Positions 4,647-43,028 of a stretch of DNA of 43,058 bases are shown here, one piece after another. A program made the translations under genes and the position numbers. The DNA comes from Solirubrobacterales bacterium (lineage in GTDB: Bacteria > Actinomycetota > Thermoleophilia > Solirubrobacterales > 70-9). Position 1 is the stretch's first letter, and each line of letters opens with the position of its first letter. The DNA lies in the NCBI GenBank assembly GCA_036393155.1, contig DASVWP010000280.1:1-43058 (forward strand), given 5' to 3'. The notes below the pieces were generated by a model. It worked only from the letters and a program-made list of their open reading frames with translations, was not told the origin of the DNA and searched no databases.

Positions 4647-5771
4647 ATGAAAAGACTTTTCCCGACCACTCTGATCGCTGTCGTCGCGCTGCTCGCGACC
4701 CTGCTCTTCGCCACCCAGCAGGGCGACGCCAAAACCGTCTTCCACGCGCCGAGGAACTTCTTCGGCATCACTCCCCAGACCGGGGTCACGCCCCAGGAAG
4801 CCCGCTGGATGAAGGCCGGGGGGATCGGCGCGATCCGCCTCTCGCTGCCCTGGGCCTCGATTCAGCCGACGCCGAACGGCAAGTACAACTGGAGCGGCTT
4901 CGACTCGGCCCTCGAAACCGCTTCCCGCGCCGGTCTGGAAGTCCTGCCCTCGATCGGCTCGCCGCCCCGCTGGGCGACGCGCAGGGAACAGACGATGCCG
5001 ATCGACAGCGCACGGGCGCGCAACGGCTGGACCGCCTTCCTGAAGGCCGCGGTCAAGCGCTACGGGCCGGGCGGGGAATTCTGGGCCGAACACGCCACCG
5101 AAGGGGTCAACTACGAACCGGCGATCACGCGCCCGATCCCGATCCGCCAGTGGCAGATCTGGAACGAGTCGAATTTCTTCTACTTCGCCTACCCGGTCTC
5201 ACCGCACCGCTATGGCAAGCTGGTGACGATCTCCAGCCAGGCGATCAAAAGCGTCGACCCGGGCGCCAAGGTGGTGCTGTCGGGGCTGTTCGGCCAGCCC
5301 ACCGCGAGCGGTAAGAAAGGGATGCCGGCGGCGACCTTCCTGCGGCAGCTCTACCGCTATCCCGGCATCAAGGCGCGCTTCGACGGGGTTTCGCTGCACC
5401 CCTACGCGGTCGACGCCGAAACGCTCGAAGAACTGGTCGAAGAATTCCACGAAGTCAGCGTCGAAAACCACGACCGGCCGGGCTTCTACATCACCGAGAT
5501 GGGCTGGGGCTCGCAGAACGACTTCCAGCACGACGCTTTCGAGCAGGGGATCCAGGGGCAGGCCCGGGAGCTGCGGGAATCGTATGAATTCCTGCTCAGC
5601 AACCAGCACAGGCTGAACCTCAAGCAGGTCTACTGGTTCTCCTGGAAAGACGCCAAGGGGCTCTGCGACTTCTGCGACTCGGTCGGCCTGTTCCGCGAAG
5701 GCACGCGGTTCAAGCCGAAGCCCGCATGGCGAGCTCTGGTGTCGCTGACCGGTGGCCGCGCGCGCCCCTGA
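4647..5771 (+). CDS. Secreted clan GH-A-like (beta/alpha)8 glycoside hydrolase, family unassigned (paralog 1, 374 aa)
   Basis: It has an N-terminal signal-like segment (MKRLFPTTLIAVVALLATLLFA). WQIWNESNF is a candidate acid/base Asn-Glu motif and ITEMGWGS is a candidate nucleophile Glu motif. A C-terminal CDFC motif is present. It is a paralog of 41904..43028. Confidence 0.65.
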   Translation: MKRLFPTTLIAVVALLATLLFATQQGDAKTVFHAPRNFFGITPQTGVTPQEARWMKAGGIGAIRLSLPWASIQPTPNGKYNWSGFDSALETASRAGLEVLPSIGSPPRWATRREQTMPIDSARARNGWTAFLKAAVKRYGPGGEFWAEHATEGVNYEPAITRPIPIRQWQIWNESNFFYFAYPVSPHRYGKLVTISSQAIKSVDPGAKVVLSGLFGQPTASGKKGMPAATFLRQLYRYPGIKARFDGVSLHPYAVDAETLEELVEEFHEVSVENHDRPGFYITEMGWGSQNDFQHDAFEQGIQGQARELRESYEFLLSNQHRLNLKQVYWFSWKDAKGLCDFCDSVGLFREGTRFKPKPAWRALVSLTGGRARP

Positions 5772-7404
5772 GGGGCGGGGCCGCTGGGCGGCGCTGATTC
5801 TGCTCCTGGGCGCCGCCGCGATCGCGGCGGCGCTCCTGCTGTCCTTTTCCTCCGGGCTGGCGCCCTTCCAGGACAGCTGGGAGTTCCTGATGCACCGGCG
5901 CGACCCCTCGGTCAGCGCCTACCTGGACCCCCACAACGAGCACATCGTGCTGATCCCGGTGGCGATCGAGCAGCTGGTGCTGCGGCTTTTCGGGATGGGT
6001 TCGACGACGCCCGAATTCGTCGTCCTCACGGCGCTCCTGCTCGCTGTCGCGGTTCTGCTCTTCGTCTACGTGGAGCGCCGTCTCGGCCCCTGGCCTGCGC
6101 TGATGGCGGCGGTGGCGATGCTCTTCCTCGGCCCGGCATGGCAGGACCTGCTGTGGCCCTTTCAGATCGGGTTCGTCGGCTCGGCGCTCTTCGGGATCGC
6201 GATGCTGCTGGCGCTGGAAGCCGAAAGCGAGCGGGGCGACCTCGCAGCCTGTGTCCTCCTGGCGATCTCGATCGGGTTCTCCAGCCTCGGCCTCCCCTTC
6301 GCCGTGGCCGCCGCGGTCGACGTGCTGCAGCGCCGACGCCCCCGGGGCCTGAGGCGGGCCTACCTCGTGGCGGCGCCGGTGCTGCTCTACGCGGTCTGGT
6401 ACCTCGGCTGGGGCCAGGACGCCGAAAGCCACCTCACCGCCCACCACGTCCTCGTCTCGCCGCGCTACGTGGCCGAAGGGCTGCGGGCCTCCGTCGACGC
6501 CCTGCTCGCCCTGGCGACGATCTTCAACGAAGCGGTCGGCCGCTCGAACTGGGGCTGGGTGGCGCTCGCGGCGGTGGTCGCCGGCCTCGCCTGGGCGACG
6601 ATCCGTCGCGGCAGCGTCCCATCGCGGGCCTGGCCCTCGCTGGCGGCGATGGCCGCCTTCTGGTTTCTCGCCGCCTTCAGCACGATGCCCGGTCGCGAGG
6701 CCTACTCGAGCCGCTACCTCTACGTCGGCGCGCTCTTCGTCCTCCTGGTCGCTGCCGACCTGCTCGCCGGCCTGCGCGCCCGCCGCTTGATCCTGGTGGC
6801 AGGCGGTGCGGTCGCGGTGGCGGTGGCCGTCCTCAACCTGCAGCCGCTGCGCGAAGGGCGCGACTTCTTCAAGTCCCAGACCGTGCTGACCAAGGCCGAT
6901 CTGGGGGCGATCGAGATCGCCCGGCGAACGGTCGAGCCGGGCTTCACCCTGCCGCCTGAAATCGCCGGCACCCCGTTCCTCAACGAAATCGAAGCCGGCG
7001 AGTACCTGCGGGCGGTGGACGAATACGGCTCGCCCGCCTACACCGCCTCAGAGCTGACCGCCGCTCCGGAGACCGGACGTCTGCAGGCGGACGTCGTGCT
7101 CGCCAACGCCCTGCCGGTGACGATCGAAGAAGGCGGCGCCGCAGCTCACCTTGGGGGTCCGGGGTGTCGCCGGCAGGGCGGGTCGTTTCCCGCATCTGGG
7201 CCGCTCCCACCGGGAACCACCGAGGTCCACTTCCTCCCGGGCCCACCCGGGACGATCGGCCTGCGTCGCTTCGCCGCTTCCGACGCGCTGGCGGACGAAG
7301 GTCTCGCCGGAGGCTCCACGACCGCGCTCGTGCTTCCCCGCGACCTCTCGCACCGACCCTGGCTGCTGCGGGTCGGCGGCGTCGAGGCGCTGGTCTGCCA
7401 TTAG
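5752..7404 (+). CDS. Uncharacterised polytopic membrane protein, family A paralog 1 (550 aa), GT-C-like architecture
   Basis: GTG start at 5752 overlaps the upstream gene by 20 nt. It has multiple hydrophobic helices followed by a C-terminal non-hydrophobic domain of about 170 aa. It shares motifs with 21517..23169 and 27176..28831: FQD(S/T)W.FL, PHNEH, LWPF(Q/E)I, GWG..AE.HLT.H, PGREA, GSPAY, and a C-terminal VC(H/R). Confidence 0.75.
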   Translation: MAARAPEGRGRWAALILLLGAAAIAAALLLSFSSGLAPFQDSWEFLMHRRDPSVSAYLDPHNEHIVLIPVAIEQLVLRLFGMGSTTPEFVVLTALLLAVAVLLFVYVERRLGPWPALMAAVAMLFLGPAWQDLLWPFQIGFVGSALFGIAMLLALEAESERGDLAACVLLAISIGFSSLGLPFAVAAAVDVLQRRRPRGLRRAYLVAAPVLLYAVWYLGWGQDAESHLTAHHVLVSPRYVAEGLRASVDALLALATIFNEAVGRSNWGWVALAAVVAGLAWATIRRGSVPSRAWPSLAAMAAFWFLAAFSTMPGREAYSSRYLYVGALFVLLVAADLLAGLRARRLILVAGGAVAVAVAVLNLQPLREGRDFFKSQTVLTKADLGAIEIARRTVEPGFTLPPEIAGTPFLNEIEAGEYLRAVDEYGSPAYTASELTAAPETGRLQADVVLANALPVTIEEGGAAAHLGGPGCRRQGGSFPASGPLPPGTTEVHFLPGPPGTIGLRRFAASDALADEGLAGGSTTALVLPRDLSHRPWLLRVGGVEALVCH

Positions 7405-8027
7405 GAGACGGGACTCAGGTCGCTGCCGATCGTCAGCCGCCTCAGGGGCGGCACCGTCGCGGCCTCGATCGCCACGGCGCCGGCGAACCCGGGTCGCATC
7501 TCCAGGTCGGCGACCGCGGCGCTGCGGCCGGCCGGAGCGCTTGCGAGGCCGACGCCGAGGCACTTGCCGAGCGCCTCGCGCCTTGCCCAGGCCGCGTAGA
7601 AGACCTCTGGCTGGGAGTCGGCGGAGGCGCTCCGCAGCGCCTCGATCTCCCCGGGGTCGAGCATCCGCCGGGCCAGCGCCTCGAAGTCCCGCTCGGGGTC
7701 GATCCACTCGACGTCGACGCCGACCTCGCGCTCCGAGGCGACCGCGACCAGCCCCAGGCCGTGGGAGTGGCTGAGGTTGAAGCGCAATCCCGCCACCGGA
7801 TCGGCCAGGCGCGGCTTGCCGCCGTCATCGACCCGCAGCTCGACCGCCGCCGGCTCGCTGCCCAGGTAGCCGGCGAGGATGCCGCGCAGCGCCCAGCGCG
7901 CGGCCGTCCAGCGCCGTTGCGAGAGCGGCCGCAGCTGGCGCTCGGTGCGCGCGCGCTCCTCCTCCGGCAGCTCCTCCTGGGGCGGCCAGCCCGTCGCGTC
8001 CAGGTTGGCTTCCCAGATGTCGAGCAC
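7401..8027 (-). CDS. 4'-phosphopantetheinyl transferase, Sfp-type
   Basis: GTG start at 8027 lies directly after the upstream TAA (junction TAAGTG). Motifs are GKPRL, FNLSHSHG, GVDVE and W.RREALGK. Confidence 0.8.
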   Translation of the reverse strand: MLDIWEANLDATGWPPQEELPEEERARTERQLRPLSQRRWTAARWALRGILAGYLGSEPAAVELRVDDGGKPRLADPVAGLRFNLSHSHGLGLVAVASEREVGVDVEWIDPERDFEALARRMLDPGEIEALRSASADSQPEVFYAAWARREALGKCLGVGLASAPAGRSAAVADLEMRPGFAGAVAIEAATVPPLRRLTIGSDLSPVS

Positions 8028-9515
8028 TTACCCGGCCCGGCCGGGACGGCGCGCCTTGCGCCGGTGGTCGATCTTGATCTTCAGCTTGCGCGAGATCGCC
8101 GCCACGTAGCTTTCGTCTTCGCCGACATAGGCGCGGAAGGTGGTGCGGTGACGGATCCGCGGCCGGAAGCGCACCGTGCAGGCGCGGTCGAGGTACCGGG
8201 TGGCGACGTGGCGCCGCCCTTCGAACAGCTTCACCGGCTCGCCCTTGCGCCCGTTGCAGGGAGAGACCCAGGCGGTCAGGAGCGCGCGGTGGTGACGGCG
8301 GATCCGGCGGCCGTGAGCCCTGATGCCGACGAACGAGGCGGCACGGGCGGTCGTGGGGGTCGAGCAGTCGGTCGGCGTCGGGCCTTCGACGCGGGAGACG
8401 ACGCCTTTGCCCGAGACCGCGTAGAGGCGGCCGCAGGAGTCTTCGCCGAAGGAGTCGAGTTCTTCGACCTGCAGGCCCTCGAAGCGGTCGGTGCCCCTCG
8501 GGTTCGCCGGGTCGAAGGAGCGGATTTCGCCCGTGCAGTGGTCGCCGTAGACGTAGCGGCCGTAGAGGCTGGCCAGGCCCGCGTCGCGGGAGACGTAGCC
8601 GCCGATGATCGCGCAGGGGCTCGTCGGGATCTGATGGGCGTAGGTGAAGATCGGTTCGACGAAGTCGGAGGCTTCGCTGCCGGCGCAGCCTTCGTCGGTC
8701 GCCGGCCCTTCGATCGTCCCCTCGCGGCAGTTCCAGCCGTAGTTGGCGCCGATGCCCAGCCCCGGCGCCGGTGCCGAGTCGACCTCCTCTTCGCGGTCCT
8801 GGCCGACGTCGGCGATGTAGATCGCGTGGGTCAGCCGGTCGAAGGAGAAGCGGAACGGGTTGCGCAGGCCGTAGCTCCAGATCGGGGCGAAATCGGCCGG
8901 GATCGAGGCGAAGGGGTTGCCGGCGGGGATCGTGTAGGGGGAGCTGCCGCTGGGGTTGGGATCGATCCGCAGCAGCTTCCCGAGCGGTTTTTCGAGGTTC
9001 TGCGCATTGTGGAATTCGTCGTTGGAGATGCCGCCGTCGCCGGTCGAGACGAAGAGCATTCCTTCGGGGCCGAACTGCAGCTGCCCGGCGTAGTGGTCGG
9101 TGTCTTCGGGGTGTTCGATGGTCAGCAGGTTGCGAAGGGTCGAGAGGGGGGCGCTGTTGCCGCTGGCCCGCATTTCGGCCACGTGGATCGCCGGCCAGGG
9201 CGTCTCGTTCCCGGTGTAGTCGACGAACAGGCGGCCGCTCGAGTCGAAGTCGGGCGCCAGGGCGATCGACAGGAGGCCGCCCTCCTCCCCGGTGGTGATC
9301 TGCGAAGTGAGGTCCGCGAAGGTGCGAGTGGTGCCTTCGTTCACTTCGGCGATCCGGCCGGGGCGTTCGACGACGAAGAGGCGTTCCGGGTTACCGGGGT
9401 CGGAGGTGACGAAGACCGGCCCTTCGAAGCGGCCGATCGGCTGCAGGGTGGCGGCCGAGGCGCTGGTTGCCCACAGGCAGCCGAGGACCGCGATCGCGGT
9501 GGCAAGGCGAGTCAC
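8028..9515 (-). CDS. Secreted PQQ-dependent sugar dehydrogenase (soluble glucose/sorbosone dehydrogenase-like beta-propeller) with a basic C-terminal extension
   Basis: It has a signal peptide (TRLATAIAVLGCLWATSASA) and the motifs GLLSIALAPDF, HYAGQLQFGPEGMLFVSTGDGG, GKLLRIDP, GLRNPFRFSFD and ANYGWN. I prefer GTG 9515, which has a TAACGT -10-like box 7 nt upstream, over the track start at 9539. Confidence 0.8.
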   Translation of the reverse strand: MTRLATAIAVLGCLWATSASAATLQPIGRFEGPVFVTSDPGNPERLFVVERPGRIAEVNEGTTRTFADLTSQITTGEEGGLLSIALAPDFDSSGRLFVDYTGNETPWPAIHVAEMRASGNSAPLSTLRNLLTIEHPEDTDHYAGQLQFGPEGMLFVSTGDGGISNDEFHNAQNLEKPLGKLLRIDPNPSGSSPYTIPAGNPFASIPADFAPIWSYGLRNPFRFSFDRLTHAIYIADVGQDREEEVDSAPAPGLGIGANYGWNCREGTIEGPATDEGCAGSEASDFVEPIFTYAHQIPTSPCAIIGGYVSRDAGLASLYGRYVYGDHCTGEIRSFDPANPRGTDRFEGLQVEELDSFGEDSCGRLYAVSGKGVVSRVEGPTPTDCSTPTTARAASFVGIRAHGRRIRRHHRALLTAWVSPCNGRKGEPVKLFEGRRHVATRYLDRACTVRFRPRIRHRTTFRAYVGEDESYVAAISRKLKIKIDHRRKARRPGRAG

Positions 9516-9556
9516 CTGGAGAACGTTAGCGACGCTCACGGTTAGTCTCCCGCGCG
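9516..9556. promoter_or_regulatory. Compact divergent promoter region with two facing -10-like boxes
   Basis: TAACGT on the minus strand (plus coordinates 9523-9528) lies 7 nt from GTG 9515. TAGTCT (9543-9548) lies 8 nt from ATG 9557. Confidence 0.45.
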
Positions 9557-10648
9557 ATGGACCGAATCCTGATCACCGGCGGGGCGGGCTTCGTGGGCTC
9601 CAACCTGGCCGTCGCCCTCGCCTCCCGCCACCCGGAGTGGGAGGTCGTGGCGCTCGACAACCTCTACCGCAAGGGGTCGGCGCTCAACCTGCCCCGGCTC
9701 GCCGAGGCCGGCGTCGAGTTCCTGGAAGGCGACGTCCGCAACCCCGAGGACCTCGCCACCGTGCCGGCGATCTCGGCGATGGTCGAGTGCTCGGCCGAGC
9801 CCTCGGTGATGAGCGGGGTCGACGGCGACACCGGCTACCTGGTCCACACCAACCTCACCGGCGCCTACAACTGCCTGGAGCTGGCCCGCCGCGACGGCGC
9901 CTTCTTCCTCTTCCTCTCGACCAGCCGCGTCTACCCGGTCGCCCCGCAGGTGGATCTGAACCTGGAGGAGGCCGCGACGCGGTTCGAGCTCGCCTCCGAG
10001 CAGGACGTGCCGGGCGTCTCGCCGGCCGGCATTTCCGAGGCCTTCCCGCTGGACGGCGCGCGGACCCTCTACGGGACCACCAAGCTGGCGGCCGAGCTGC
10101 TGATCGAGGAGTACCGGAGCGGCCTCGGCGTCCCGGCGGCGATCGACCGCTGCGGCGTCATCGCCGGGCCCTGGCAGATGGGCAAGGTCGATCAGGGAGT
10201 GTTCACGCACTGGATGCTGGCCCACTATTTCCGAAACCCTCTGAACTACATTGGTTTCGGAGGGCATGGAAAGCAGGTGCGCGATCTTCTCCACGTCGAC
10301 GACCTGGTCGACCTCGTCGAGCGCCAGCTGCTCGACCCCGGCTCCTGGGACGGGCGGACCGTGAACGTCGGCGGCGGCCGCGAGTGCAGTCTCTCCCTGC
10401 TGGAGACGACCGAGATCTGCCGGCGCCTGACCGGCAACGAGGTGCCGATCGGCTCGGTGCGGGAGACGCGGCAGGGTGACGTGCCCGTATACCTTTCCGA
10501 CTGCGCAAGGCTTTTCAGCCTCGACGAATGGCGCCCCCGTCGCAGCGCCGAACAGGTGCTCGCCGACATCCACGAGTGGATCGCGGCGGACGAGGAGCGG
10601 ATCGCCGAGGCGCTCGAGATCAAATCCCCGACGGGGGGAAGGGAGTAG
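9557..10648 (+). CDS. NAD-dependent epimerase/dehydratase (extended SDR, CDP-paratose-2-epimerase-like)
   Basis: It has the Rossmann motif [12 protein letters not shown] and the catalytic motifs STSRVY and YGTTKLAAE (YxxxK). Confidence 0.85.
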
Positions 10649-10655: not shown

Positions 10656-11729
10656 ATGCCGGTAGCGATCATCACGGGGGCCGGGGGGCTGATCGGCTCG
10701 GAGGCGGTCGGGCACTTCGTCGGCGGGGGGTTCGACGTGGTCGGGATCGAGAACGACATGCGGGCGCAGTTCTTCGGGCCGGAGTCCTCGACCTCCCACG
10801 TGACCGAGCGCCTGGTCGCCGAGCATCCGGAGTTCCGCTGGGAGAACGCGGACATCCGCGACACCGAGCGGGTCGAGCAGATCTTCCGCCAGCACGCCGG
10901 CCAGATCGAGCTGGTCATCCACACCGCCGCCCAGCCCTCCCACGACTGGGCCGCCAGCGCCCCGCAGGTCGACTTCGGCGTCAACGCCAATGGCACCCTC
11001 AACTTGCTCGAGGCCGCCCGCGCCCACTGCCCGGACGCGCCCTTCGTCTTCTGCTCGACCAACAAGGTCTACGGCGACACCCCGAACCGGCTGCCGCTGG
11101 AATCGCTGGAGAAGCGCCTGGAGCTGCCCTCGGACCATCCCTATTACAAGGGCATCGACACCTCGATGTCGATCGACTCCTCGACCCACTCGCTGTTCGG
11201 CGTCTCCAAGGCGGCCGCCGACCTGCTGGTCCAGGAGTACGGCCGCTACTTCGAAATGCCCACGGTCGCCTTCCGCGGCGGCTGCCTGACCGGGCCCCAG
11301 CACGCGGGCGCGAAGCTCCACGGCTTCCTCGCCTACCTGATGAAGTGCGTGGTCACCGGCACGCCGTACACGGTCTTCGGCTACGAGGGCAAGCAGGTGC
11401 GGGACAACATCCACAGCGCCGACCTGATCGCCGCCTTCGACGCCTTCCGCCGCTCCCCGCGGCCGGCGGCTGTCTACAACATCGGCGGCGGTCGCTTCTC
11501 CAACTGCTCGATGTTGGAGGCGATCGAGGTCTGCGAGCGGATCGCCGGCCGCGAGCTCGACTGGCAGATGGGGGAGGAGCCGCGGATCGGGGACCACCGC
11601 TGGTGGATCTCCGACCTGGCGCCCTTCCAGGCCGACTACCCGGACTGGAACCTGCGCTACGGGATCGAGGAGATTCTGCGGGAGATGTACGAGCAGAACC
11701 TCGAGCGCTGGAGCGTGAGCGCCGCGTGA
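10656..11729 (+). CDS. NAD-dependent epimerase/dehydratase (extended SDR), second tandem copy
   Basis: ATG 10656 lies 7 nt after the upstream TAG and is preceded by the purine-rich GGGGGGAAGGGAG. Motifs are [19 protein letters not shown] and FGVSKAAAD. Confidence 0.85.
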
Positions 11730-12499
11730 AGCTCTCGGTGGTGATGCCGGCCCAGAACGAGGAGGGGTCGGTGGGGGCGACCGTCGAAGGGGTGGTCGCG
11801 GTCCTCGAGCGGGAGGGTGTCGACTACGAGGTGGTCGTCGTCAACGACGACAGCGAAGATTCGACCGAAGCCGTCGTCGCCGCGATCGGCATGGCGAACC
11901 CACGGGTCAGGGTCCACCGCTCCCATCTGGATCGGGGGTTCGGCAACGCGATCCGCGCCGGTCTCGACGTCTTCGAGGGCGACGCGGTGGCGATCGTGAT
12001 GGCCGACGCCTCCGACAACCCCGAGGACCTCGTGATGTACCACCGGATCCTCGAGGAGGGCTGGGACTGCGCCTTCGGCTCCAGGTTCATGCCCGGCGCG
12101 CGGGTCTACGACTACCCGCGGCTCAAGTACGTCGTCAACCGCCTGGCCAACCAGTTCATCCGAGTGCTGTTCCGCCACCGCTACAACGACACCACCAACG
12201 CCTTCAAGGCCTACCGGCGCGAGGTCATCGAGACGATTCAGCCCCTGCTCTCGAAGCACTTCAACCTCACGGTGGAGATGCCGCTGAAGGCGATCGTCCG
12301 CGGTCACTCCTACAAGGTGGTTCCCACCAATTGGACCAATCGCGCCGCGGGCGAGGCGAAGCTGAAGATGAAGGAGATGGGCAGCCGCTACCTCTTCATC
12401 GTCCTCTACGTCTGGCTGGAGAACGCGCTGAGCCGCGGCGATTACCGCGTGGCCCAGCACCAGCCGGTCCGCGATCGGACCGGCGAGCCCACCGGTTAG
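11726..12499 (+). CDS. GT2 polyprenyl-phosphate glycosyltransferase (DPM1/GtrB/ArnC-like lipid-linked sugar synthase)
   Basis: GTG 11726 overlaps the upstream TGA (GTGA). Motifs are [21 protein letters not shown], the ADASD acidic motif and [11 protein letters not shown] short hydrophobic segment, [10 protein letters not shown], lies near the C-terminus. Confidence 0.8.
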
Positions 12500-35460: not shown

Positions 35461-36440
35461 AGATCCTCGTCACCGGCGCCGCCGGTTTCATCGGTTCCAC
35501 CTACGTGCGCCTGGTCGGCTCCGAGCACGACGTCGTCGTGCTCGACAAGCTCACCTACGCCGGCCGGCGCGAGAACCTGCCCGAGGGCACGCCGCTGGTG
35601 GTCGGCGCGATCGAGGACCCGGCGGCGGTGCGCGAAGCGATGCAGGGCGTCGACGCGGTGGTCAACTTCGCCGCCGAGTCCCACGTCGACCGCTCGATCG
35701 AGGACCAGAACGCCTTCGCCCGCACCCACGTGATCGGCACCGGGACGCTGCTGGACGCCGCCCGCGAGCTCGGCGTCGAGCGCTACCTGCAGGTCTCCAC
35801 CGACGAGGTCTACGGCTCGATCGAGTCCGGCTCGTTCACCGAGACCTCGCCCCTGGACCCCTCCTCGCCCTACTCGGCGACCAAGGCCGCCGGCGACCTG
35901 CTGGTCGCCGCGCACGTCCACACCTACGGCATCGACGCCTCGATCGTCCGCGGCTCCAACAACTACGGCCCGCGCCAGTACCCCGAGAAGCTGATCCCGC
36001 TGATGGTGCTGAACGCCCTGCACGGCGACCCGCTGCCGGTCTACGGCGACGGCCGCCAGGTCCGCAACTGGCTCTTCGTCGAGGACTTCTGCCGCGGCAT
36101 CCACACCGTGCTGGCGAAGGGGAAGGCCGGCGAGGCCTACAACGTCGGCGGCCCCGAGGAGTGCGAGAACATCGAGGTCGTCAAGCGGGTTATCGAGCTG
36201 ACCGGGGGGGACGAGTCGCTGATCGAGTACGTCACCGACCGGCCCGGCCACGACCGCCGCTACTCGCTCTCCTCGGCGAAGCTGAAGGAGGAACTCGGCT
36301 GGGAGGCCGAGGTCCACTTCGACGAGGGCCTGGAGAAGACCGTGCGGTGGTACCGCGACAACGAGGAGTGGTGGGGGCCGATCCGCTCCGGCGAGTACCG
36401 CGAGTACTACGAGAAGCAGTACGGGAAGGCGCTGCGCTAG
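35457..36440 (+). CDS. rmlB: dTDP-glucose 4,6-dehydratase
   Basis: ATG 35457 overlaps the rmlD stop (ATGA). Motifs are ILVTGAAGFIGS, STDEVYG, YSATKAAGD and HDRRYS. Confidence 0.9.
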   Translation: MKILVTGAAGFIGSTYVRLVGSEHDVVVLDKLTYAGRRENLPEGTPLVVGAIEDPAAVREAMQGVDAVVNFAAESHVDRSIEDQNAFARTHVIGTGTLLDAARELGVERYLQVSTDEVYGSIESGSFTETSPLDPSSPYSATKAAGDLLVAAHVHTYGIDASIVRGSNNYGPRQYPEKLIPLMVLNALHGDPLPVYGDGRQVRNWLFVEDFCRGIHTVLAKGKAGEAYNVGGPEECENIEVVKRVIELTGGDESLIEYVTDRPGHDRRYSLSSAKLKEELGWEAEVHFDEGLEKTVRWYRDNEEWWGPIRSGEYREYYEKQYGKALR

Positions 36441-36994
36441 TGCCGGAGCGCCTGCCGACCCGGATCGAGGGGCTCGTCCTGCTGGAGCCTGTCGTCCACG
36501 GCGACGAGCGCGGCTTCATGGTCGAGACGTTCAGCCGCGAGCAGTGGGCGGAGCTGGGGGTGGACCTCCCGTTCGTCCAGCACAACCACTCGCGCTCGCG
36601 CCGCGGCACCCTGCGCGGGATCCACTTCCAGACCGAGCCGGGGCAGGCGAAGCTCGTCCGCTGCGCCCGCGGCGAGGTCCTCGACGTCGCCGTCGACCTG
36701 CGCCGCGGCTCGCCGACCTTCGGCCAGTGGGAAGCCCAGGTCCTCGACGACGTCCGCCACCGCCAGTTCTTCGTTCCCGTCGGCTTCGGCCACGGCTTCG
36801 TCGTCCTCAGCGAGACCGCCGACTTCTGCTACCAGGTGTCGAGCCTCTACGACCCCGAGACCGAGTCGGGGATCGCCTGGGACGACCCCGACGTCGGGGT
36901 CGACTGGCGGGTTGCCGAGCCGCTGCTCTCCGAGCGCGACAAGCAGGCCCCGCGCCTCGCCGAGGTCGCCGACTCGCTGCCCTTCGCCGTCTAG
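36440..36994 (+). CDS. rmlC: dTDP-4-dehydrorhamnose 3,5-epimerase
   Basis: GTG 36440 overlaps the rmlB TAG by 1 nt. The cupin motifs are DERGFM, RGIHFQ, GFGHGF and the conserved Tyr in FCYQVSSLY. Confidence 0.9.
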   Translation: MPERLPTRIEGLVLLEPVVHGDERGFMVETFSREQWAELGVDLPFVQHNHSRSRRGTLRGIHFQTEPGQAKLVRCARGEVLDVAVDLRRGSPTFGQWEAQVLDDVRHRQFFVPVGFGHGFVVLSETADFCYQVSSLYDPETESGIAWDDPDVGVDWRVAEPLLSERDKQAPRLAEVADSLPFAV

Positions 36995-37872
36995 CGTCGC
37001 CGGCCGGCCGCGGTGATCGCCAGGCTGACCGCCAGCTTGGCGCCGATCCCTGCGTAGACCGCGGCGTTCAGCAGGGGGTTCGCCCCCGGTGCCTCGAAGC
37101 GGCGGTAGAAGCGACCCATGCCGCGGTGGAAGGCGACCTCCTGGCGCGGCCGGCGGCGCGCCCCGCTGGATGCCCCCTTGACGTGCAGGGCCACCCCGGC
37201 CGGCTCGTAGAAGACCTTCCAGCCGGCGTCCCAGAAGCGGTGGCACCAGTCGAGGTCCTCCATGTAGAGCCAGTAGCCCTCGTCGAGCAGGCCGACGTCG
37301 CGCACCGCCTCGGCGCGGCAGAGCATGAAGGCGCCGTTGACCGCGTCGACCTCTCCCGGCTCCTCGTCGCCGAGGTGGGTCGCCCGGTACTGGCTCAGCG
37401 AGTCCGCGGCGCCGGCGCCGCGGCCGACCCCGGTGAAGTGGGCGAGGGCGCTCAGCGGCGTGGGGAAGGAGCGCTTGCAGGCGTGGTCCAGCTCGCCGCT
37501 CTCGGTCACCAGCTTGCAGCCGACCATGCCGATGCGCGGCTCCGACCACAGCCGCGCCAGCACCGCGTCGAGGGTCCCGGCATAGACCTCGGTGTCGGGG
37601 TTGAGGAGCAGCACCGCCGGGGCCTCGCTCTCGCGCAGCACGAGGTTGTTGGCGGCCGAGAAGCCGACGTTGCCGCGGCGCAGCAGCCGCGCCGCGGCGA
37701 ACTCGCGCTCGACCATGTCCGGGGTGCCGTCCGGGCTGCCGCTGTCGACCACCGTCACCCGCATCGAGCCGGCGCTCGGGGGATGCTCGGCGAGCGAGTG
37801 CAGGCAGCGCCGCAGCAGCCCTTCGGCCCCGTGGCTGACGATCACGACCTCGAGGTCGGGGGCGGGCGGCAT
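36991..37872 (-). CDS. GT2 glycosyltransferase (WbbL-like)
   Basis: Motifs are VVIVSHG, VVDSGSPDGT, NVGFSAANN, LNPDT and YMEDLDWCHR. Its stop overlaps the rmlC stop (CTAG at 36991-36994). Confidence 0.8.
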   Translation of the reverse strand: MPPAPDLEVVIVSHGAEGLLRRCLHSLAEHPPSAGSMRVTVVDSGSPDGTPDMVEREFAAARLLRRGNVGFSAANNLVLRESEAPAVLLLNPDTEVYAGTLDAVLARLWSEPRIGMVGCKLVTESGELDHACKRSFPTPLSALAHFTGVGRGAGAADSLSQYRATHLGDEEPGEVDAVNGAFMLCRAEAVRDVGLLDEGYWLYMEDLDWCHRFWDAGWKVFYEPAGVALHVKGASSGARRRPRQEVAFHRGMGRFYRRFEAPGANPLLNAAVYAGIGAKLAVSLAITAAGRRR

Positions 37873-37881: not shown

Positions 37882-39381
37882 CTAGTAGGCGCCGTTGCCG
37901 CGGAAGATCGCCTGCGGCGTGCGGATCAGGATCGAGAGGTCGGTGAGCAGCGAGAGGTTGTCGAGGTAGTCGCGCTCCATCGCCAGCCGCTCCTCGAAGG
38001 TCAGGTCGCTGCGCCCGTAGACCTGCATCGGCCCGGTCACTCCCGGCTTCACCGCCAGCCGCGTGCGCTGGCGCTCGTCGTACAGGGCGACCACGCTCTC
38101 CTCCTCGGGCCGCGGGCCGACCAGCGACATCTGGCCGCGCAGGACGTTGATCAGCTGCGGCAGCTCGTCGAGGCTGGTCCGGCGCAGCCAGCGGCCGGTC
38201 CGGGTGACCCGCGGGTCGTCGGGGATCTTGAAGGCGGGCTGCTCGAGCGCCGCCAGGTCGACCAGGTCGGCAAGCCGCTCCTCGGCGTCGGCGACCATGG
38301 TGCGGAACTTCAGCATCGTGAATGGCTCGCCTTCCTGGCCGGCGCGGCGCTGGCGGAAGAGGACCGGCCGGCCGGTGTCGAGGAGGATCGCCAGGGCGAT
38401 CGCCGCCAGCAGCGGCGAGAGCACGACCAGCACGAAGGCGGCGACCACCACGTCCATCCCGCGCTTCAGCGCCTGCGTCGAGCGCGGCGGGTCGCTGAAG
38501 CGGAAGTCGAGGACCGGCAGCTCGGCCAGCCGGTTGAGCTCGATCCCCGGCCCGAGCAGCCCGTAGTGCTGGGGCAGGAAGGTCAGAGCCAGGCCCTCCG
38601 CCTTGCACTGCTCGATCAGCCGCTCGGCGGCCATCTCGCTCATCTCCTGTTCGGTGACCACGACGCGCTCGATCTCGTATTCGCGGGCGACCTGCGAGAT
38701 GTCGGCGATCGAGCCCAGGCGCGGCAGCTCCTTGCCCCCGTCGGCCTTGTCGGAGAGATAGCCGACCAGTCCGAGCCGCGTCTCGGGGTGCGTGGAGACC
38801 CGGCGGGCGACGACGTCGGCCGCCGCTCCCGGGCCGACCACCACGCCGAGGGCGACGGGGGTCAGCCGGTGCCACAGGAACCGCACCGTCCCCCGCAGCA
38901 CGACGCTGCCGAAAAGGGTCCCGACCCCCAGCGCGATCGCGCTCGCCGGCGACAGCGGGCCGACCGGGCTGAGCGCCAGCAGACCGTCCAGGGCCAGGGT
39001 GCCGAGGACGGCGGCGGAGACCAGCGAGGCGAGCTCGTCGAGCGTGCTGTGGCGGATCCGCCGGTGGTCCTTGTCGTAGAGGCCGTTCAGCTTCACGACG
39101 AGGATCCAGACCGGGCTGAAGAGGACCGCCCAGAAGAGCGTCGCGATGTCGGTGCTGGAGGTCGCCGCGGTGATGGCGCAAAGCGACACGCACAGGGCGG
39201 TCCAGTCGCCGAACGCGAGAAGCCGGCGCAGCAGGGCGCCGCGCCGCCGCGACTCGCTGGCCCCGGGCGCGGGCGTCATCGGAGCCCGTGAGCCGCGATC
39301 GGCGGCCGGCCGCCCGGCCGCCGGAGCGCTCACCCGCTCCTCGGTCGCCTTGCTCCGTGCGGTGTCGGAGATCCGGCTCAT
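37882..39381 (-). CDS. Polyprenyl-phosphate glycosyl-1-phosphate transferase (WbaP/WsaP/CpsE-type bacterial sugar transferase), pathway initiator
   Basis: This is the C-terminal 499 aa of track ORF 37882..41316. It has N-terminal helices, a central Rossmann-like segment and a C-terminal catalytic domain (KRGMDVV, FKFRTM-like MLKFRTM, DELPQLINVLRGQMSLVGPRPE). ATG 39381 overlaps the upstream stop (ATGA). Confidence 0.85.
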   Translation of the reverse strand: MSRISDTARSKATEERVSAPAAGRPAADRGSRAPMTPAPGASESRRRGALLRRLLAFGDWTALCVSLCAITAATSSTDIATLFWAVLFSPVWILVVKLNGLYDKDHRRIRHSTLDELASLVSAAVLGTLALDGLLALSPVGPLSPASAIALGVGTLFGSVVLRGTVRFLWHRLTPVALGVVVGPGAAADVVARRVSTHPETRLGLVGYLSDKADGGKELPRLGSIADISQVAREYEIERVVVTEQEMSEMAAERLIEQCKAEGLALTFLPQHYGLLGPGIELNRLAELPVLDFRFSDPPRSTQALKRGMDVVVAAFVLVVLSPLLAAIALAILLDTGRPVLFRQRRAGQEGEPFTMLKFRTMVADAEERLADLVDLAALEQPAFKIPDDPRVTRTGRWLRRTSLDELPQLINVLRGQMSLVGPRPEEESVVALYDERQRTRLAVKPGVTGPMQVYGRSDLTFEERLAMERDYLDNLSLLTDLSILIRTPQAIFRGNGAY

Positions 39382-41396
39382 CGGCAGGCTTCCGGCCCTT
39401 CTTCGATACAGGCTTCGCGCGGGTTCAGGCGCAGGGCTTCCCGCAGGTCCGCCCGCGCGGCGGATTCGTTGCCGGCTTCGTGCTCGATCCGCGCCCGCAG
39501 GTAATAGAGAAGCCAGTTGCCTTCCTCGCGTTCGATCGCCTTGCCCATCATTTCCGAGGCGGTGGCGAATTCGCCCTGGCCCTCGTACAGCAGCCCCAGC
39601 TGGACGTACGGCGAGGCCGCCCAGGGCTCGATCGAGCGGGCGGTCTTCGCGTGTTCGATCGCCGAGGCCACGTTGCCGTCGGCGCTCGCCGTCTGGCTGG
39701 CGTCGAGCTCGTGGTGGACCAGAAGCGGTCCGATCAGCGCCAGGGCGGCGATCCAGGCGACCGCCAGGCCGGCGATCGCGATGCCGTAGCGCCGCCGCTC
39801 GCCGCGCCCGTTGCCCTCCACCCGCAGTTGGGCCAGCTGCCCGCAGCGCGCCGCGACCAGGACGGCGGCGGCGAGGAAGAAGACCGCCCCGAGCCCGGCG
39901 ATCGCCCAGAACCAGTCGATCGCCGCGCCGACCGCGAAGGCCAGGCAGGCGGCGAGCAGGGCGGCGTAGAGCTCCCGGCGGGCCCCGCTCGCCGCGCGCC
40001 AGGCCGCGAAGCCGGTCCACAGCAGGAACAGCACCAGGCCGAGCACCAGCAGACCGCCGATCGTCCCCAGCTCTGCGAAAGCCTGCAGGTAGAGCGAGTG
40101 GGCTTCGAGGACCGGCATCGTGGTGTGCCGCAGCTGATCCCAGGCGAAGCGGTAGGTGCCGGCACCCTTGCCGGCCACCGGGTCTTCGGCGAAGGCGTCG
40201 AGGGCGACGCGCCAGAATTCGCTGCGGCCGGAGCCGGAGAGCTGCCCGAAGTGCTGCTGGGGCTGGCTCGGCAGCTGCACGTCGGAGCTGCTGAACTGGT
40301 GCCAGGCGCGGCCGCCGACCGCGATCGCCGCGCCGATCGCCAGCAGCGCCGCGACCAGGGCGAGTGCCCGCAGGACGCGGCGGTCGCGGGAGAGCGCCAG
40401 CGCCCGCCCGGTGAGCGCGCCGCCTCGCGCCTCCAGTCGCCGCAGGCCGGCCCAGAGAGCCAGCGAGAGGGCGATCCCGGCGAGGAGCAGCAGGAGGACC
40501 GTCGCGCCCTGGCCGGCGATCGACGGGTTGTCGAAGTTGTTGGCGATCGTGTCGTGGGCCTGGACCGACAGCACCGCCGGCACCGCCCCGACCGCCCCGA
40601 CCGCCAGCGTTCCCAGGAGCAAGAGCCGGTCGGGCGAGAGGGCCAGCAGGCAGAGGCCGGCGACCAGCAGGGCCAGCAGGCCGCCACGCGAGTAGGTGAA
40701 GTAGAGGGCGAGCAGCAGCGCCGGCAGCGAGGCGACCGCGAGCCAGCGCAGGGAGGCGTTCAGCGAGCGCCGGCTGAGCCAGAGCGAGAGCACCGTGCCG
40801 ATCCCGAAGGCGACCCCGTCGGCGTTCCAGTATCCGAGGGGGTAGCCGAGCCGGGAATTGCTCCCCGGGCCGTCTCCCAGAGCGAACACGTGGGGCAGCA
40901 GCCGGCTGGTCAGGGCCAGGATCGCGACGCCGATCAGCGAAATTGCGATGCCTTCGGCGAAACGTTGGCGCCTTTGGTCGGTTTGGGCGATCAGAAACGC
41001 GGCAACGAAGAACCCGAGGTAGACCAGCACACGGTCGGCTTCGATCACGCTCAGCTCGACAGACCCGGACCAAAGAGATGAGGATGCGGAAAAAAGCGCT
41101 AGTGCCCCGATCAGCCCAACCGCCCAGTAGAAAGGCCTCCCGAGCGTCGCTCGGCCGCCGAGGCCGAGGGCGAGCATGCCAACCAGGATCAGCCATACGG
41201 CCAGGCCGGCGACGTGCCGAGATCCCAGCGCAAAGCCACCTCCGCCCAGCGCGAGGCCAAGGATCAAGAGTGGCGGACCTATCAGCGCCGCTGATTCCTC
41301 TAACCTTGCCCGCCATGCATCGGACCCGCCACCCACGTGCCCGGAGCTCGGCCCTGCGCGCCGTCTCGCTTCTCTCAATGCTTGCTGTGCTGGCAT
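39378..41396 (-). CDS. O-antigen ligase family (Wzy_C domain) polytopic membrane protein fused to a C-terminal TPR domain
   Basis: The Wzy_C-like core carries FTYSRGGLLALLVAG and GKGAGTY...EAHSLYLQAFAELG. TPR-like repeats occupy the last 105 aa or so (about 39381-39700). The start is uncertain: ATG 41396 or GTG 41336, and the track start at 41465 is a TTG. Every candidate start overlaps the divergent gene that starts at 41315. Confidence 0.7.
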   Translation of the reverse strand: MPAQQALREARRRAGPSSGHVGGGSDAWRARLEESAALIGPPLLILGLALGGGGFALGSRHVAGLAVWLILVGMLALGLGGRATLGRPFYWAVGLIGALALFSASSSLWSGSVELSVIEADRVLVYLGFFVAAFLIAQTDQRRQRFAEGIAISLIGVAILALTSRLLPHVFALGDGPGSNSRLGYPLGYWNADGVAFGIGTVLSLWLSRRSLNASLRWLAVASLPALLLALYFTYSRGGLLALLVAGLCLLALSPDRLLLLGTLAVGAVGAVPAVLSVQAHDTIANNFDNPSIAGQGATVLLLLLAGIALSLALWAGLRRLEARGGALTGRALALSRDRRVLRALALVAALLAIGAAIAVGGRAWHQFSSSDVQLPSQPQQHFGQLSGSGRSEFWRVALDAFAEDPVAGKGAGTYRFAWDQLRHTTMPVLEAHSLYLQAFAELGTIGGLLVLGLVLFLLWTGFAAWRAASGARRELYAALLAACLAFAVGAAIDWFWAIAGLGAVFFLAAAVLVAARCGQLAQLRVEGNGRGERRRYGIAIAGLAVAWIAALALIGPLLVHHELDASQTASADGNVASAIEHAKTARSIEPWAASPYVQLGLLYEGQGEFATASEMMGKAIEREEGNWLLYYLRARIEHEAGNESAARADLREALRLNPREACIEEGPEACR
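41301..41306 (+). promoter_or_regulatory. -10-like TAACCT hexamer 8 nt upstream of ATG 41315
   Basis: It matches TANNNT with the spacing seen at other first genes in the window. Confidence 0.4.
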
Positions 41397-41872: not shown

Positions 41873-41903
41873 GCCCGTGCTGAAATCGAGGAGGTACACC
41901 AAG

Positions 41904-43028
41904 ATGAAGCTGCGCGCCTGCGTTGCGGCGGTCGCCCTAGTCGTCTGCGGCGTCTTCGCCTCGACCGCACAGGCGTTGCCGGTCGGGTTCTGGGGCGCCG
42001 TGCCGCAGACCAACCTCAGCCAGGAACAGTTCCAGCGCCTGGCCGACGGCGGCGTCGAAAGCATCCGCATCCCGTTCGGCTGGCAGGCGATCCAGCCGGC
42101 CCGCAACGGCGCATACGAATGGGGCAGCCTCGACTCCCAGGTGGAAGCCGCGGCCAAGGCCGGCATCCAGGTCCTGCCCTTCCTCTCCGGCGCCCCGACC
42201 TGGGCGGTCCCCTCGATCTACGTCTCGGGCACCGGGCACAACCTGAAAGCCCCCGCCCACCTGCCGACCACCGGGGCGGGTCGTGCCGCCTGGATCGCCT
42301 TCATCACCGCGGCGGTCGCCCGCTACGGTCCGGCCGGGACGTTCTGGAGCGAACATCCGACCGTCCCCGAGCGGCCGATCCGGACATGGCAGATCTGGAA
42401 CGAGCCGAACTTCAAGTACTTCATCGCCAGGCCGAACCCGGCCGAATACGGCCAGCTGGTGAAGATCTCCTACAACGCCGTCAAAGCGGCCGATCCCGGG
42501 GCGAAGCTCGTGCTGGCCGGGTTGTTCGCCAGGCCCAAGGGCTCGGAAACCCGCACCGGCAAGCACAAGAGCCTGAACTGGAGCGCCAAGAACTTCCTCG
42601 AAGCGATGTACAAGAGCACCCCCGGGGTGCGGACGAAGTTCAACGGCGTGGCCCTGCACCCGTACACGATCCGCTACCGGGAACTGACTCCGGAGATCGA
42701 AACGGTCCGCGGCGTCCTGGCCAAGAACCACGACGGCGGCAAGGGCCTGTGGATCACCGAGTTGGGCTGGAGCTCCGAACCGCCCGACCCGGCGGTGGAC
42801 CAGTTCGCCAAAGGCATCGCCGGGCAGGCCCGGGAACTGAAGGGCGCCTTCACCCTCCTGCGCAGCAAGCAGGTGAAGTGGCGGCTCCAGCAGGTCTACT
42901 GGTTCTCGGTCGACGACGTCGCCGGCGCCTGCAACTTCTGCGGCGGCTCCGGCCTGTTCGCCACCGGGTTCAAGCCGAAGAAGGCCTGGTTCGAATACGT
43001 GAAGCTGACCGGCGGCAGCCCCTTCTAG
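41904..43028 (+). CDS. Secreted clan GH-A-like glycoside hydrolase, family unassigned (paralog 2, 374 aa)
   Basis: ATG 41904 is preceded by GAGGAGG about 10 nt upstream. The signal peptide reads MKLRACVAAVALVVCGVFASTAQA. Motifs are WQIWNEPNF, ITELGWSS and CNFC. It has the same length as the paralog at 4647..5771. Confidence 0.7.
   Translation: MKLRACVAAVALVVCGVFASTAQALPVGFWGAVPQTNLSQEQFQRLADGGVESIRIPFGWQAIQPARNGAYEWGSLDSQVEAAAKAGIQVLPFLSGAPTWAVPSIYVSGTGHNLKAPAHLPTTGAGRAAWIAFITAAVARYGPAGTFWSEHPTVPERPIRTWQIWNEPNFKYFIARPNPAEYGQLVKISYNAVKAADPGAKLVLAGLFARPKGSETRTGKHKSLNWSAKNFLEAMYKSTPGVRTKFNGVALHPYTIRYRELTPEIETVRGVLAKNHDGGKGLWITELGWSSEPPDPAVDQFAKGIAGQARELKGAFTLLRSKQVKWRLQQVYWFSVDDVAGACNFCGGSGLFATGFKPKKAWFEYVKLTGGSPF

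Follow-up and report, generated by a model that had tools for sequence, protein, structure and literature searches.

In Geobacillus stearothermophilus, the slg cluster for surface-layer (S-layer) glycosylation contains the WbaP-type initiator WsaP, WsaC-F, the transporter pair Wzm/Wzt, RmlACBD and the Wzy_C transferase WsaB (PMC2943079). Its WsaE protein unites a methyltransferase with two family 2 glycosyltransferase (GT2) domains and makes a 2-O-methyl-rhamnose cap, and C-terminal tetratricopeptide repeats (TPRs) are known from WsfB of the Paenibacillus alvei slg cluster and from PglL (PMC2943079). For the O-antigens of Citrobacter youngae O1 and O2, Kelly et al. (2024) described a three-component GT136 system with a WbdD-like terminator, a Wzt that carries a carbohydrate-binding module (CBM), a GT-C glycosyltransferase with a C-terminal CBM, an epimerase of the short-chain dehydrogenase/reductase (SDR) type, and WaaL (PMC11127046). 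Klebsiella O-antigens, cited in the same paper, also combine ATP-binding cassette (ABC) export with elaboration by GT-C enzymes. Here we analyse a locus at positions 4647-43028 of contig DASVWP010000280.1 of a Solirubrobacterales bacterium (Actinomycetota); the whole stretch of 43,058 nt, a complete contig, is called the window below. We consider it probable that the genes of this locus form one integrated pathway, in which a methyl-capped rhamnose glycopolymer would be exported by the ABC transporter, elaborated outside the membrane by GT-C enzymes, transferred by a Wzy_C-TPR protein and trimmed by PslG-like hydrolases.

Comparison with described systems

For the initiator, the GT2 enzymes, the Rml proteins, Wzm/Wzt and the Wzy_C-TPR protein, slg is the closest match. 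Like the slg cluster of Geobacillus NRS 2004/3a, the locus pairs a WbaP-type initiator with an ABC transporter, includes its own dTDP-rhamnose genes, ties a multi-domain GT2 rhamnosyltransferase to a methyltransferase in the same methyl-cap logic, and has a Wzy_C transferase with C-terminal TPRs as in WsfB and PglL. It belongs to another phylum and has another gene order, it is without an S-layer or other acceptor gene, and its methyltransferase and dual GT2 are separate genes, unlike in slg. Five GT-C proteins, a putative lipid-donor synthase and a pair of SDR enzymes are added here, and two PslG-like hydrolases stand at the borders. On the pathway predicted here, the locus shares with C. youngae a rhamnose-containing, ABC-transporter-dependent backbone, a Wzt-CBM with a putative terminator of the methyl type, decoration after export by a GT-C protein with a beta-rich C-terminal CBM, an auxiliary SDR epimerase and final ligation by a member of the Wzy_C family (WaaL). 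The C. youngae system differs in making a Gram-negative lipopolysaccharide, in its initiation by WecA, in a phosphoribosyl-type donor synthase instead of a GT2, in having a MATE flippase and one GT-C protein rather than five, and in WaaL being encoded elsewhere; its backbone consists of D-rhamnose derived from GDP-mannose, whereas the precursor here is dTDP-L-rhamnose.

The rhamnose polysaccharides of streptococci and lactococci (GacI/J/K/L, SccN/M, Csd) are likewise rhamnans on a lipid carrier that are exported by an ABC transporter. They differ in a WecA-type start with GlcNAc-1-phosphate, in attachment by LytR-CpsA-Psr (LCP) proteins and in encoding flippases. To our knowledge they have no Wzy_C ligase, and a cap-binding Wzt_C module has not been described for them. 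Their decoration outside the cytoplasm relies on pairs of a GT2 lipid-donor synthase and a GT-C protein (PMC9574508, PMC11754754). The psl operon of Pseudomonas aeruginosa also has a membrane-anchored or secreted clan GH-A hydrolase, PslG, inside a polysaccharide locus; here, by contrast, two diverged copies stand at the locus borders. In mycobacteria, the arabinogalactan locus encodes GlfT1/2, the Wzm/Wzt pair Rv3781/3783, DprE1/2, UbiA, AftA-D and EmbA-C. Its cytoplasmic chain is exported by Wzm/Wzt and then built up by several GT-C enzymes that use a lipid-linked donor (PMC11127046). The present locus resembles it in phylum, in the predicted combination of a linear cytoplasmic chain with Wzm/Wzt export and build-up by several GT-C proteins, and in an oxidoreductase pair that may serve donor formation. 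It differs in having no UbiA or DprE1 homologues, in GT-C proteins unrelated in sequence to Emb and Aft, in a WbaP-type initiator in place of WecA and Wzy_C in place of LCP, and in the presence of Wzt_C and methyltransferases. No UbiA, DprE1, DprE2, Emb/Aft orthologue or LCP ligase was found in the window, AftA and AftB appearing only as weak structural matches.

The initial annotation of this DNA had regarded the co-occurrence of three kinds of machinery, for cap-coupled ABC export, extracytoplasmic GT-C decoration and Wzy_C transfer, as unusual. All three are present according to the domain and family assignments, but their co-occurrence is not categorically new: C. youngae O1/O2 combines all three (PMC11127046), and slg is a further precedent (PMC2943079). 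What is new here is the actinobacterial and presumably monoderm setting, the Wzy_C-TPR gene within the locus beside several GT-C genes, the GT-C families themselves, and an SDR without the catalytic tyrosine. Still unusual are the number of GT-C genes and the lack of annotation of their families, an in-locus Wzy_C-TPR in an actinobacterium, and the lack of a donor flippase or LCP gene in the locus and its annotated relatives.

A locus conserved among uncultured Solirubrobacterales

A profile of M3, one of the five polytopic proteins, was scanned against one genome per GTDB species and found 80 loci, all of them in uncultured Solirubrobacterales, Thermoleophilia or Conexibacteraceae metagenome-assembled genomes (MAGs), several of which are closed chromosomes of 2.5-3.1 Mb. 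Since the gene set recurs in these 80 other genomes, its clustering is not due to chance. The synteny search that had been proposed for the gene set thus recovers a common scaffold, PNPOx / GH_L-(M)-(GSDH)-(PPT)-SDR1-SDR2-GT2a-MTa-(M3)-dual GT2-small-(M)-Wzm-Wzt-(MTb)-GT2b-GT2d-RmlADBC-GT2c-PGT-WzyC-GH_R / Lhr helicase, in which M is an M-family gene and the other names are those of Table 1. Gene counts in related loci, here and in Table 1, come from tblastn searches with the window proteins within 10 kb of M3 in 55 full-length loci; for the Methyltransf_24 gene and the small coiled-coil gene, presence was scored at 40% identity or more. An M-family gene lies within this distance in at least 39 of the 55. 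Variation is confined to additional methyltransferases, to a second polymerase module and to the number of GT-C genes. Protein identity to relatives lies at 50-90%, which is consistent with vertical descent. The locus is a vertically inherited, lineage-conserved core with variable decoration modules and not a mobile island, and this genome is at the elaborate end of the range. In two relatives, accessory modules (L084, 4446-7085 and 16255-18192; L085, 871-2853 and 5207-6019) encode an 879-aa GT4, GT4-GT2 and GT4-methyltransferase fusions, Methyltransf_21 proteins and an ALGX-domain protein, which suggests extensive decoration diversity on the common scaffold.

Homologues of M2, M3 and the Wzy_C-TPR protein number more than 1,000 each and are annotated as hypothetical proteins or as 'O-antigen ligase family'. 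Where they carry a taxon name at all, it is that of a Solirubrobacterales MAG, most matches being unnamed metagenome proteins. No characterised cluster with the same gene order was found, the close relatives all being unstudied MAGs.

Both ends of the locus are marked by hydrolase genes, GH_L and GH_R, which had been described as paralogous secreted GH-A-like enzymes. The two proteins are indeed 42% identical, and each has an N-terminal hydrophobic segment. PslG is the best solved relative of GH_R, the copy searched against PDB, with an alignment of low similarity that extends over only some 170 residues. On the left, the junction between PNPOx and GH_L is kept in L009 and L023. On the right the window itself ends, but the border is genuine, because in two complete relatives GH_R is followed by genes for Lhr helicase, Crp and PCMT.

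Five polytopic proteins with a predicted GT-C fold

On structural models and profile comparisons, all five polytopic proteins (M1 to M5) are GT-C-fold proteins, belonging to three sequence lineages: the M family (M1, M2 and M4), M3 and M5. The assignment follows from the structural matches of M2 and M3, the alignment of M3 with M5, and the GT87 score of M5. M1, M2 and M4 are paralogues with 47-51% identity. Each has about 10 transmembrane helices, and its C-terminal part, some 200 residues long, is soluble and closes with a beta-sandwich of about 100 residues. The M family has no match in Pfam, NCBIfam or PDB sequences, either with a single sequence or with a 40-sequence profile. An AlphaFold2 model of M2 made from the 40-sequence alignment (predicted local distance difference test, pLDDT, 89.6; predicted TM-score, pTM, 0.88) gave as Foldseek matches ArnT (E 3.9e-5, TM-score 0.44-0.45), STT3/PglB/AglB, ALG12, AftA, DPY19 and protein mannosyltransferases; 17 of the top 19 matches are GT-C enzymes. 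The residues Q35-D36 are invariant in the 40 M-family sequences and lie just past the first transmembrane helix (residues 8-27), and the catalytic acid of GT-C enzymes is placed just after this helix (compare PMC11127046).

The M3 lineage also has no Pfam, NCBIfam or PDB sequence match. Its AlphaFold2 model (pLDDT 87.4, pTM 0.90) has Foldseek matches above a TM-score of 0.3, up to 0.43, only with GT-C proteins (Pmt4, ALG12, ALG9, ArnT, AftB), and PimE reaches 0.29. The M3 profile aligns with that of the M5 orthologues (hhalign E 4.6e-5) and has the motif F[TV]WPKLL in common with it, so that M3 and M5 are distantly related; kinship of the M family with either of them was rejected by hhalign. 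At the sequence level M5 showed no link to solved structures, whether as a single sequence or as a profile. It had been considered that the membrane proteins might be transporters unrelated to glycan assembly, and this identity was rejected: MFS, SLC and LeuT folds reach TM-scores of about 0.1-0.2, against 0.3-0.45 for GT-C enzymes.

Two of the three lineages, the M family and the M3 family, are large and unannotated. Among 1.84 billion cluster representatives, a search with the family profile found 5,068 M-family members at E <=0.001 and 1,709 at <=1e-30. The distant members carry no taxon names and are all annotated as metagenome 'hypothetical proteins'. Two predicted metagenome fusions, one of an M domain with an N-terminal Wzy_C domain (P0392, 1225 aa) and one of an M domain with a GT2 (P0411, 930 aa), support a functional link between these activities, with the reservation that metagenomic gene models can be chimeric. 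Some long M-family members (P0384, P0429, P0383, P0386) have extra regions without a Pfam match. The initial annotation had called the number of GT-C-like proteins unusual, and the comparison bears this out, as four of the five lie within 10 kb of M3 here, compared with one to three in the 55 relatives.

Rhamnose genes, initiation and cytoplasmic assembly

The dTDP-L-rhamnose pathway is complete, with RmlA, RmlB, RmlC and RmlD all exceeding the NCBIfam equivalog cut-offs. Initiation is not of the WecA (GlcNAc-1-phosphate) type: the initiator is a Bac_transf/WbaP-type protein, as in Geobacillus slg, and it has five N-terminal transmembrane segments. GT2c adjoins it in L046, L082 and L083. Opposite GT2d, the complementary strand remains open and reads in frame into RmlA, so that a spurious open reading frame (ORF) of 610 aa with a high coding score results. 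An N-terminal RmlA extension of about 250 residues was accordingly rejected, since it is the reverse strand of GT2d (32556-33482), which is a genuine gene.

By tblastn, about 50 loci have a small coiled-coil ORF upstream of the conserved dual GT2; at the identity threshold given above, it is present in at least 33 of the 55. Its protein is a candidate for tethering the polymerase to the membrane or for serving it as a ruler, and would resemble the coiled coil of WbdD in role and not in sequence. The second polymerase-like module, composed of MT23, the accessory dual GT2 and GT4, occurs in three or four of the 55 loci (examples are L005, L026, L029 and L074).

Export and methyltransferases

The wzm and wzt genes overlap at 24045-24048, and the nearest NCBIfam families of Wzt are TagH and galactan Wzt. 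The C-terminal domain of Wzt is kept in 49 of 50 relatives, so a checkpoint on the terminal residue is probably general. MTa, MTb or both are found near M3 in 38 of the 55 loci, and other loci carry different methyltransferases (Methyltransf_21 proteins, GT4-methyltransferase fusions). Compared with a WbdD-type terminator, the locus has five methyltransferases and neither a kinase domain nor a fused coiled coil; a separate coiled-coil protein of 99 aa is encoded beside the dual GT2.

These five are among six in the window, as had been counted previously, the sixth being TylF1 at 1566-2357, outside the interval bounded by the hydrolases. TylF1 and TylF2 are 74% identical, a similarity that suggests a recent duplication. 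In L035 the locus itself includes a gene resembling TylF1, between GSDH and SDR1.

Putative lipid-donor genes

SDR1 and SDR2 both match CDP-tyvelose 2-epimerase best. SDR1 orthologues have a median identity of 83% and the motif YG[AT]TK. In SDR2 the motif FGVSK replaces YxxxK in 31 of 31 orthologues, which at a median identity of 88% are among the most conserved proteins of the locus. Possibly SDR2 has no catalytic role and is a partner that SDR1 requires, or it may carry out a different chemistry. The best PDB matches of GT2a are the Pyrococcus furiosus Dol-P-Man synthase (5mlz), ArnC and GtrB, and its best NCBIfam matches, all below cut-off, are AglJ, Dol-P-hexose transferase, PgfS, ArnC and PpgS. 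The nearest solved and curated relatives of GT2a are thus all polyprenyl-phosphate sugar synthases.

The Wzy_C-TPR protein

The start of the Wzy_C-TPR gene is most likely at 41396, giving a protein of 672 aa, as judged from homologues. A public gene call for this protein (P0242, 556 aa) looks truncated in comparison with homologues of 629-672 aa. In related loci the gene always adjoins that of the initiator. No PglL- or TfpM-specific signature was found, the match being at the domain level only. A search of PDB sequences matched designed TPR proteins only, and for this reason a ligase and an O-oligosaccharyltransferase could not be told apart. Neither the window nor the flanks of the relatives' loci contain a gene for an S-layer protein or a target glycoprotein.

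Proposed pathway and alternatives

The pathway proposed here builds on the families and folds of the parts and on their conserved linkage, which are observed; we infer the order of the steps, the donor sugar, the chemistry of the cap, the acceptor and the action of the GT-C proteins on the polymer. RmlABCD would supply dTDP-L-rhamnose, and the WbaP-type transferase would prime polyprenyl phosphate with a hexose-1-phosphate. GT2c and other single GT2 enzymes may then build an adaptor, on which the dual GT2, together with the small coiled-coil protein, would polymerise the backbone in the cytoplasm; the second module of this genome (MT23, dual GT2 and GT4) may contribute a further element. MTa, MTb or both would cap the non-reducing end, the C-terminal module of Wzt would read the cap, and Wzm/Wzt would export the lipid-linked chain. 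In parallel, SDR1 and SDR2 may tailor a nucleotide-linked or lipid-linked sugar, which GT2a would load onto polyprenyl phosphate. After this donor has been flipped, by a flippase that is not among the genes of the locus, M1, M2, M4, M3 and M5 would add the sugar to the exported chain, the M family probably gripping the polymer with its C-terminal beta-sandwich. The Wzy_C-TPR protein would take the completed glycan off its lipid carrier and attach it to a protein of the surface or to some other molecule of the envelope, and the two PslG-like hydrolases would trim or release the polymer. TylF-type and other extra methyltransferases may account for strain-specific O-methylation. Every step has a precedent in a described system (PMC11127046, PMC2943079). 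A literature search on envelope glycans or S-layers of Thermoleophilia and Solirubrobacterales found nothing relevant. The whole-cell sugars of a cultured Solirubrobacter are galactose, xylose, rhamnose and ribose (PMC10722151); if this organism carries the locus, they would be compatible with a galactose-primed rhamnose polymer with pentose decoration.

Several points weigh against this pathway. That GT-C proteins act on an ABC-exported polymer is deduced only from conserved linkage. The catalytic tyrosine is missing from SDR2 in all 31 orthologues, and no WbdD-type kinase or ruler protein is encoded in the locus. The methyltransferases and GT2a score below the curated family cut-offs, and the cap chemistry and the donor sugar are for this reason guesses. 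A donor flippase (GtrA, Wzx-like or MATE) was found neither in the window nor in four related loci annotated with Pfam, and the search of these five stretches found no LCP or Wzz domain either.

The missing flippase also leaves nothing to connect the two halves of the locus, which might be independent pathways that merely sit side by side: protein O-glycosylation of the slg type (initiator, GT2s, Rml, Wzm/Wzt and Wzy_C-TPR) next to a separate lipid-donor and GT-C system (GT2a, the SDRs, the M family, M3 and M5) for another target such as proteins or a lipoglycan. Protein O-mannosyltransferases (Pmt4, Pmt1/2) and PimE are among the Foldseek matches of M3 and M2, and in some relatives (L038, L046, L082, L083) the SDR-GT2a and PGT-WzyC blocks are separated by more than 10 kb or differ in arrangement. 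We nevertheless consider such co-location unlikely. In nearly all loci the M-family and M3 genes lie interspersed among those for the dual GT2 and Wzm/Wzt, M domains occur fused to Wzy_C and to GT2, and the beta-sandwich of the M family resembles the CBMs with which GT136 and Emb enzymes bind polymer (PMC11127046). Somewhat less likely again is a wall core resembling arabinogalactan, in which the exported rhamnose chain would be the primer for a branched second homopolymer, polymerised outside the membrane by the GT-C paralogues from a single lipid donor, as Emb and Aft do with decaprenyl-phosphate-arabinose, to give an essential wall polysaccharide. It would suit the three to five GT-C genes with one in-locus lipid-donor synthase, the 83-88% identity of the donor genes, the universal presence of the locus in the clade and a host that shares its phylum with mycobacteria. 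AftA and AftB are among the structural matches too, but these are weak (E 0.017 and 0.25), and the locus has no UbiA/DprE-type genes, WecA or LCP. In most relatives the GT-C genes near M3 number just two, and Wzt_C and the cap methyltransferases argue for a chain that is finished and capped before export.

A horizontally acquired, strain-specific island for a capsule or extracellular polysaccharide is very improbable, and could apply only to the accessory block at 13182-19510. The initial annotation had spoken of an island; in the sense of horizontal transfer this term has to be given up. The GC content does dip to 0.65-0.68 at 22000-31000 (Wzm/Wzt, M3, M4 and MTb), against 0.72-0.74 in the flanks, and the accessory methyltransferases and the second polymerase module are rare among relatives. 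(The AT skew is strongly negative at 25-29 kb.) However, the scaffold is kept with both its borders in 80 species-level genomes of one order, housekeeping genes stand at those borders in complete relatives, the proteins retain 50-90% identity to those of relatives, and the window has no tRNA and, in any called gene by Pfam, no integrase or transposase domain.

Gene calls and remaining genes

The window has a GC content of about 70%, and its six-frame ORF lists are crowded with antisense artefacts. Genes were called from GC at third codon positions (GC3) and with a log-odds model of codon usage, and every call was checked against Pfam, NCBIfam and PDB sequences. Calls based on the longest ORF were rejected, as the high GC yields antisense ORFs such as 37882-41316 and the 610-aa 'RmlA' ORF. 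In the interval 4647-43028, 32 genes were called (Table 1). The calls and these searches reproduced the earlier inventory of rmlADBC, an initiator, two dual GT2s, a GT4, Wzm/Wzt, five GT-C-like proteins and a Wzy_C-TPR fusion at the same coordinates. The count of four single GT2 genes stands only if the polyprenyl-phosphate-sugar-synthase-like GT2a is one of them, and fails as four in addition to it. The earlier statement that nearly all genes are glycan-related, with the exceptions of a phosphopantetheinyl transferase and the coiled-coil gene, needs two corrections: the GSDH at 8028-9539 had not been listed, and the coiled-coil ORF is no exception, being conserved upstream of the dual GT2. 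None of the genes called in the window matched an LCP, Wzx, Wzz/polysaccharide co-polymerase, GtrA or MATE domain, in agreement with the initial annotation as regards LCP, Wzx, the co-polymerase and GtrA, and the gaps between genes are too small to hide such a gene.

A phosphopantetheinyl transferase (Sfp/AcpS-type) is at the equivalent position in L023, L042, L050 and L078, and is thus conserved although no carrier protein is encoded in the locus. GSDH adjoins SDR1 in 5-7 related loci. It has a C-terminal extension of about 190 aa, and sugar oxidation and lectin-like binding are possible roles. The left flank (2-4572) contains a partial penicillin amidase gene, a divergent pair of a DJ-1/PfpI gene and an AraC-DJ-1 regulator, and a gene for a PNPOx-like protein.

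Table 1. Genes of the locus, with TylF1 from its left flank, their assignments, supporting matches and occurrence near M3 in related loci
Gene	Position	Strand	Assignment	Support and remarks	Related loci
TylF1	1566..2357	-	Sugar O-methyltransferase outside the GH-bounded interval	PF05711, E 4.5e-94	
GH_L	4647..5771	+	Secreted clan GH-A-like hydrolase, left border	Pfam GH42 N-terminal, 26.6 bits (cut-off 21)	
M1	5752..7404	+	M family	47-49% identity to M2 and M4; no Pfam/NCBIfam match; fold predicted from M2 model	
PPT	7401..8027	-	4'-phosphopantetheinyl transferase	PF01648, E 9e-15	
GSDH	8028..9539	-	Secreted glucose/sorbosone-dehydrogenase-like beta-propeller	PF07995, E 2.7e-39; N-terminal hydrophobic segment	
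SDR1	9557..10648	+	Extended SDR, CDP-tyvelose-2-epimerase-like	PDB 1orr, E 8.6e-31; canonical YGTTK	
SDR2	10656..11729	+	Extended SDR, paralogue of SDR1	PDB 9rl0 and 1orr, E about 1e-30; FGVSK, Phe for catalytic Tyr	
GT2a	11726..12499	+	Polyprenyl-phosphate sugar synthase-like GT2	PDB 5mlz, E 2e-19; 257 aa, no transmembrane segment	32/55
MTa	12509..13261	-	Class I methyltransferase, conserved candidate chain terminator	Start 13261 or 13168; Methyltransf_11, 28 bits (cut-off 21)	35/55
Methyltransf_24	13182..14243	+	Accessory methyltransferase	PF13578, E 5e-11; specific to this window	0/55
TylF2	14256..15032	-	Accessory macrocin-O-methyltransferase-type sugar O-methyltransferase	PF05711, E 1e-82	0/55
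MT23	15014..16150	+	Methyltransferase	PF13489, E 1e-23; overlaps start of accessory dual GT2	
dual GT2, accessory	16147..18183	+	Second dual-domain GT2, polymerase-like	Two PF00535 stretches	4/55
GT4	18191..19510	+	GT4, accessory module	PF00534 and PF13439	4/55
dual GT2	19491..21143	-	Conserved dual-domain GT2, candidate backbone polymerase	Two PF00535 stretches	51/55
small	21144..21443	-	Small coiled-coil protein (99 aa)	Weak coiled-coil Pfam matches only; stop abuts dual GT2 start	
M2	21517..23169	+	M family, C-terminal beta-sandwich	AlphaFold2 and Foldseek; no PDB sequence match	
Wzm	23176..24048	-	ABC-2 permease	PF01061, E 1e-15	51/55
Wzt	24045..25301	-	ATPase with C-terminal Wzt_C	PF00005; PF14524, 36.7 bits (cut-off 30.4)	49/55
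M3	25395..27176	+	All-helical protein, predicted GT-C fold	AlphaFold2 and Foldseek; hhalign to M5 profile	
M4	27209..28831	+	M family	51% identity to M2; no Pfam match	
MTb	28849..29868	-	Class I methyltransferase next to Wzt	Start 29685-29868; PF13489, 32 bits (cut-off 27)	17/55
GT2b	29747..30712	+	GT2	PF00535, E 3e-21	44/55
M5	30705..32516	-	GT87/PMT_2-like GT-C	PF09594 GT87, 28.7 bits (cut-off 25)	12/55
GT2d	32556..33482	-	GT2	PF00535, E 3e-21; GTG start behind GAAGGAG	36/55
RmlA	33519..34595	+	RmlA, long form	TIGR01208, 489.6 bits (cut-off 320); homologues 358-359 aa	
RmlD	34609..35460	+	RmlD	TIGR01214, 310.9 bits (cut-off 224)	
RmlB	35457..36440	+	RmlB	TIGR01181, 417.3 bits (cut-off 365)	
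RmlC	36440..36994	+	RmlC	TIGR01221, 218.5 bits (cut-off 155.75)	
GT2c	36991..37872	-	Candidate adaptor glycosyltransferase next to initiator	PF00535	
PGT	37882..39279	-	Initiator, polyprenyl-phosphate hexose-1-phosphate transferase (WbaP/WcaJ type)	PF02397, E 2e-64; TIGR03025, 354 bits (cut-off 295)	
WzyC	39378..41396	-	Wzy_C-TPR, O-antigen-ligase/O-oligosaccharyltransferase-like	PF04932, 61 bits (cut-off 31.7); C-terminal TPR	
GH_R	41877..43028	+	Secreted PslG-like GH-A hydrolase, right border	PslG 4zn2, E 2e-8	

Implications

S-layer glycosylation in Firmicutes is known to combine a WbaP-type initiator with a CBM-bearing Wzm/Wzt system and Wzy_C. This combination exists in Actinomycetota too, and is joined in the present locus to elaboration by several GT-C proteins. 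The M and M3 families, which current domain databases miss, could seed new CAZy or Pfam families. If the Wzy_C-TPR protein is a wall or protein ligase, the range of polysaccharide anchoring in monoderm bacteria would be wider. A more far-reaching reading, which we regard as doubtful, is that the locus makes the counterpart of arabinogalactan, an essential wall heteropolysaccharide whose outer domain would be built by the M and M3 families from a donor formed with the SDR pair, one of them without its tyrosine, and which would be attached by Wzy_C-TPR and not by LCP. If true, the attachment would follow a logic of wall anchoring that is new to monoderm Actinomycetota. The Solirubrobacterales occur widely in soil as an abundant, unstudied group of actinobacteria, and the locus offers a concrete, conserved set of genes as an entry to their envelope.

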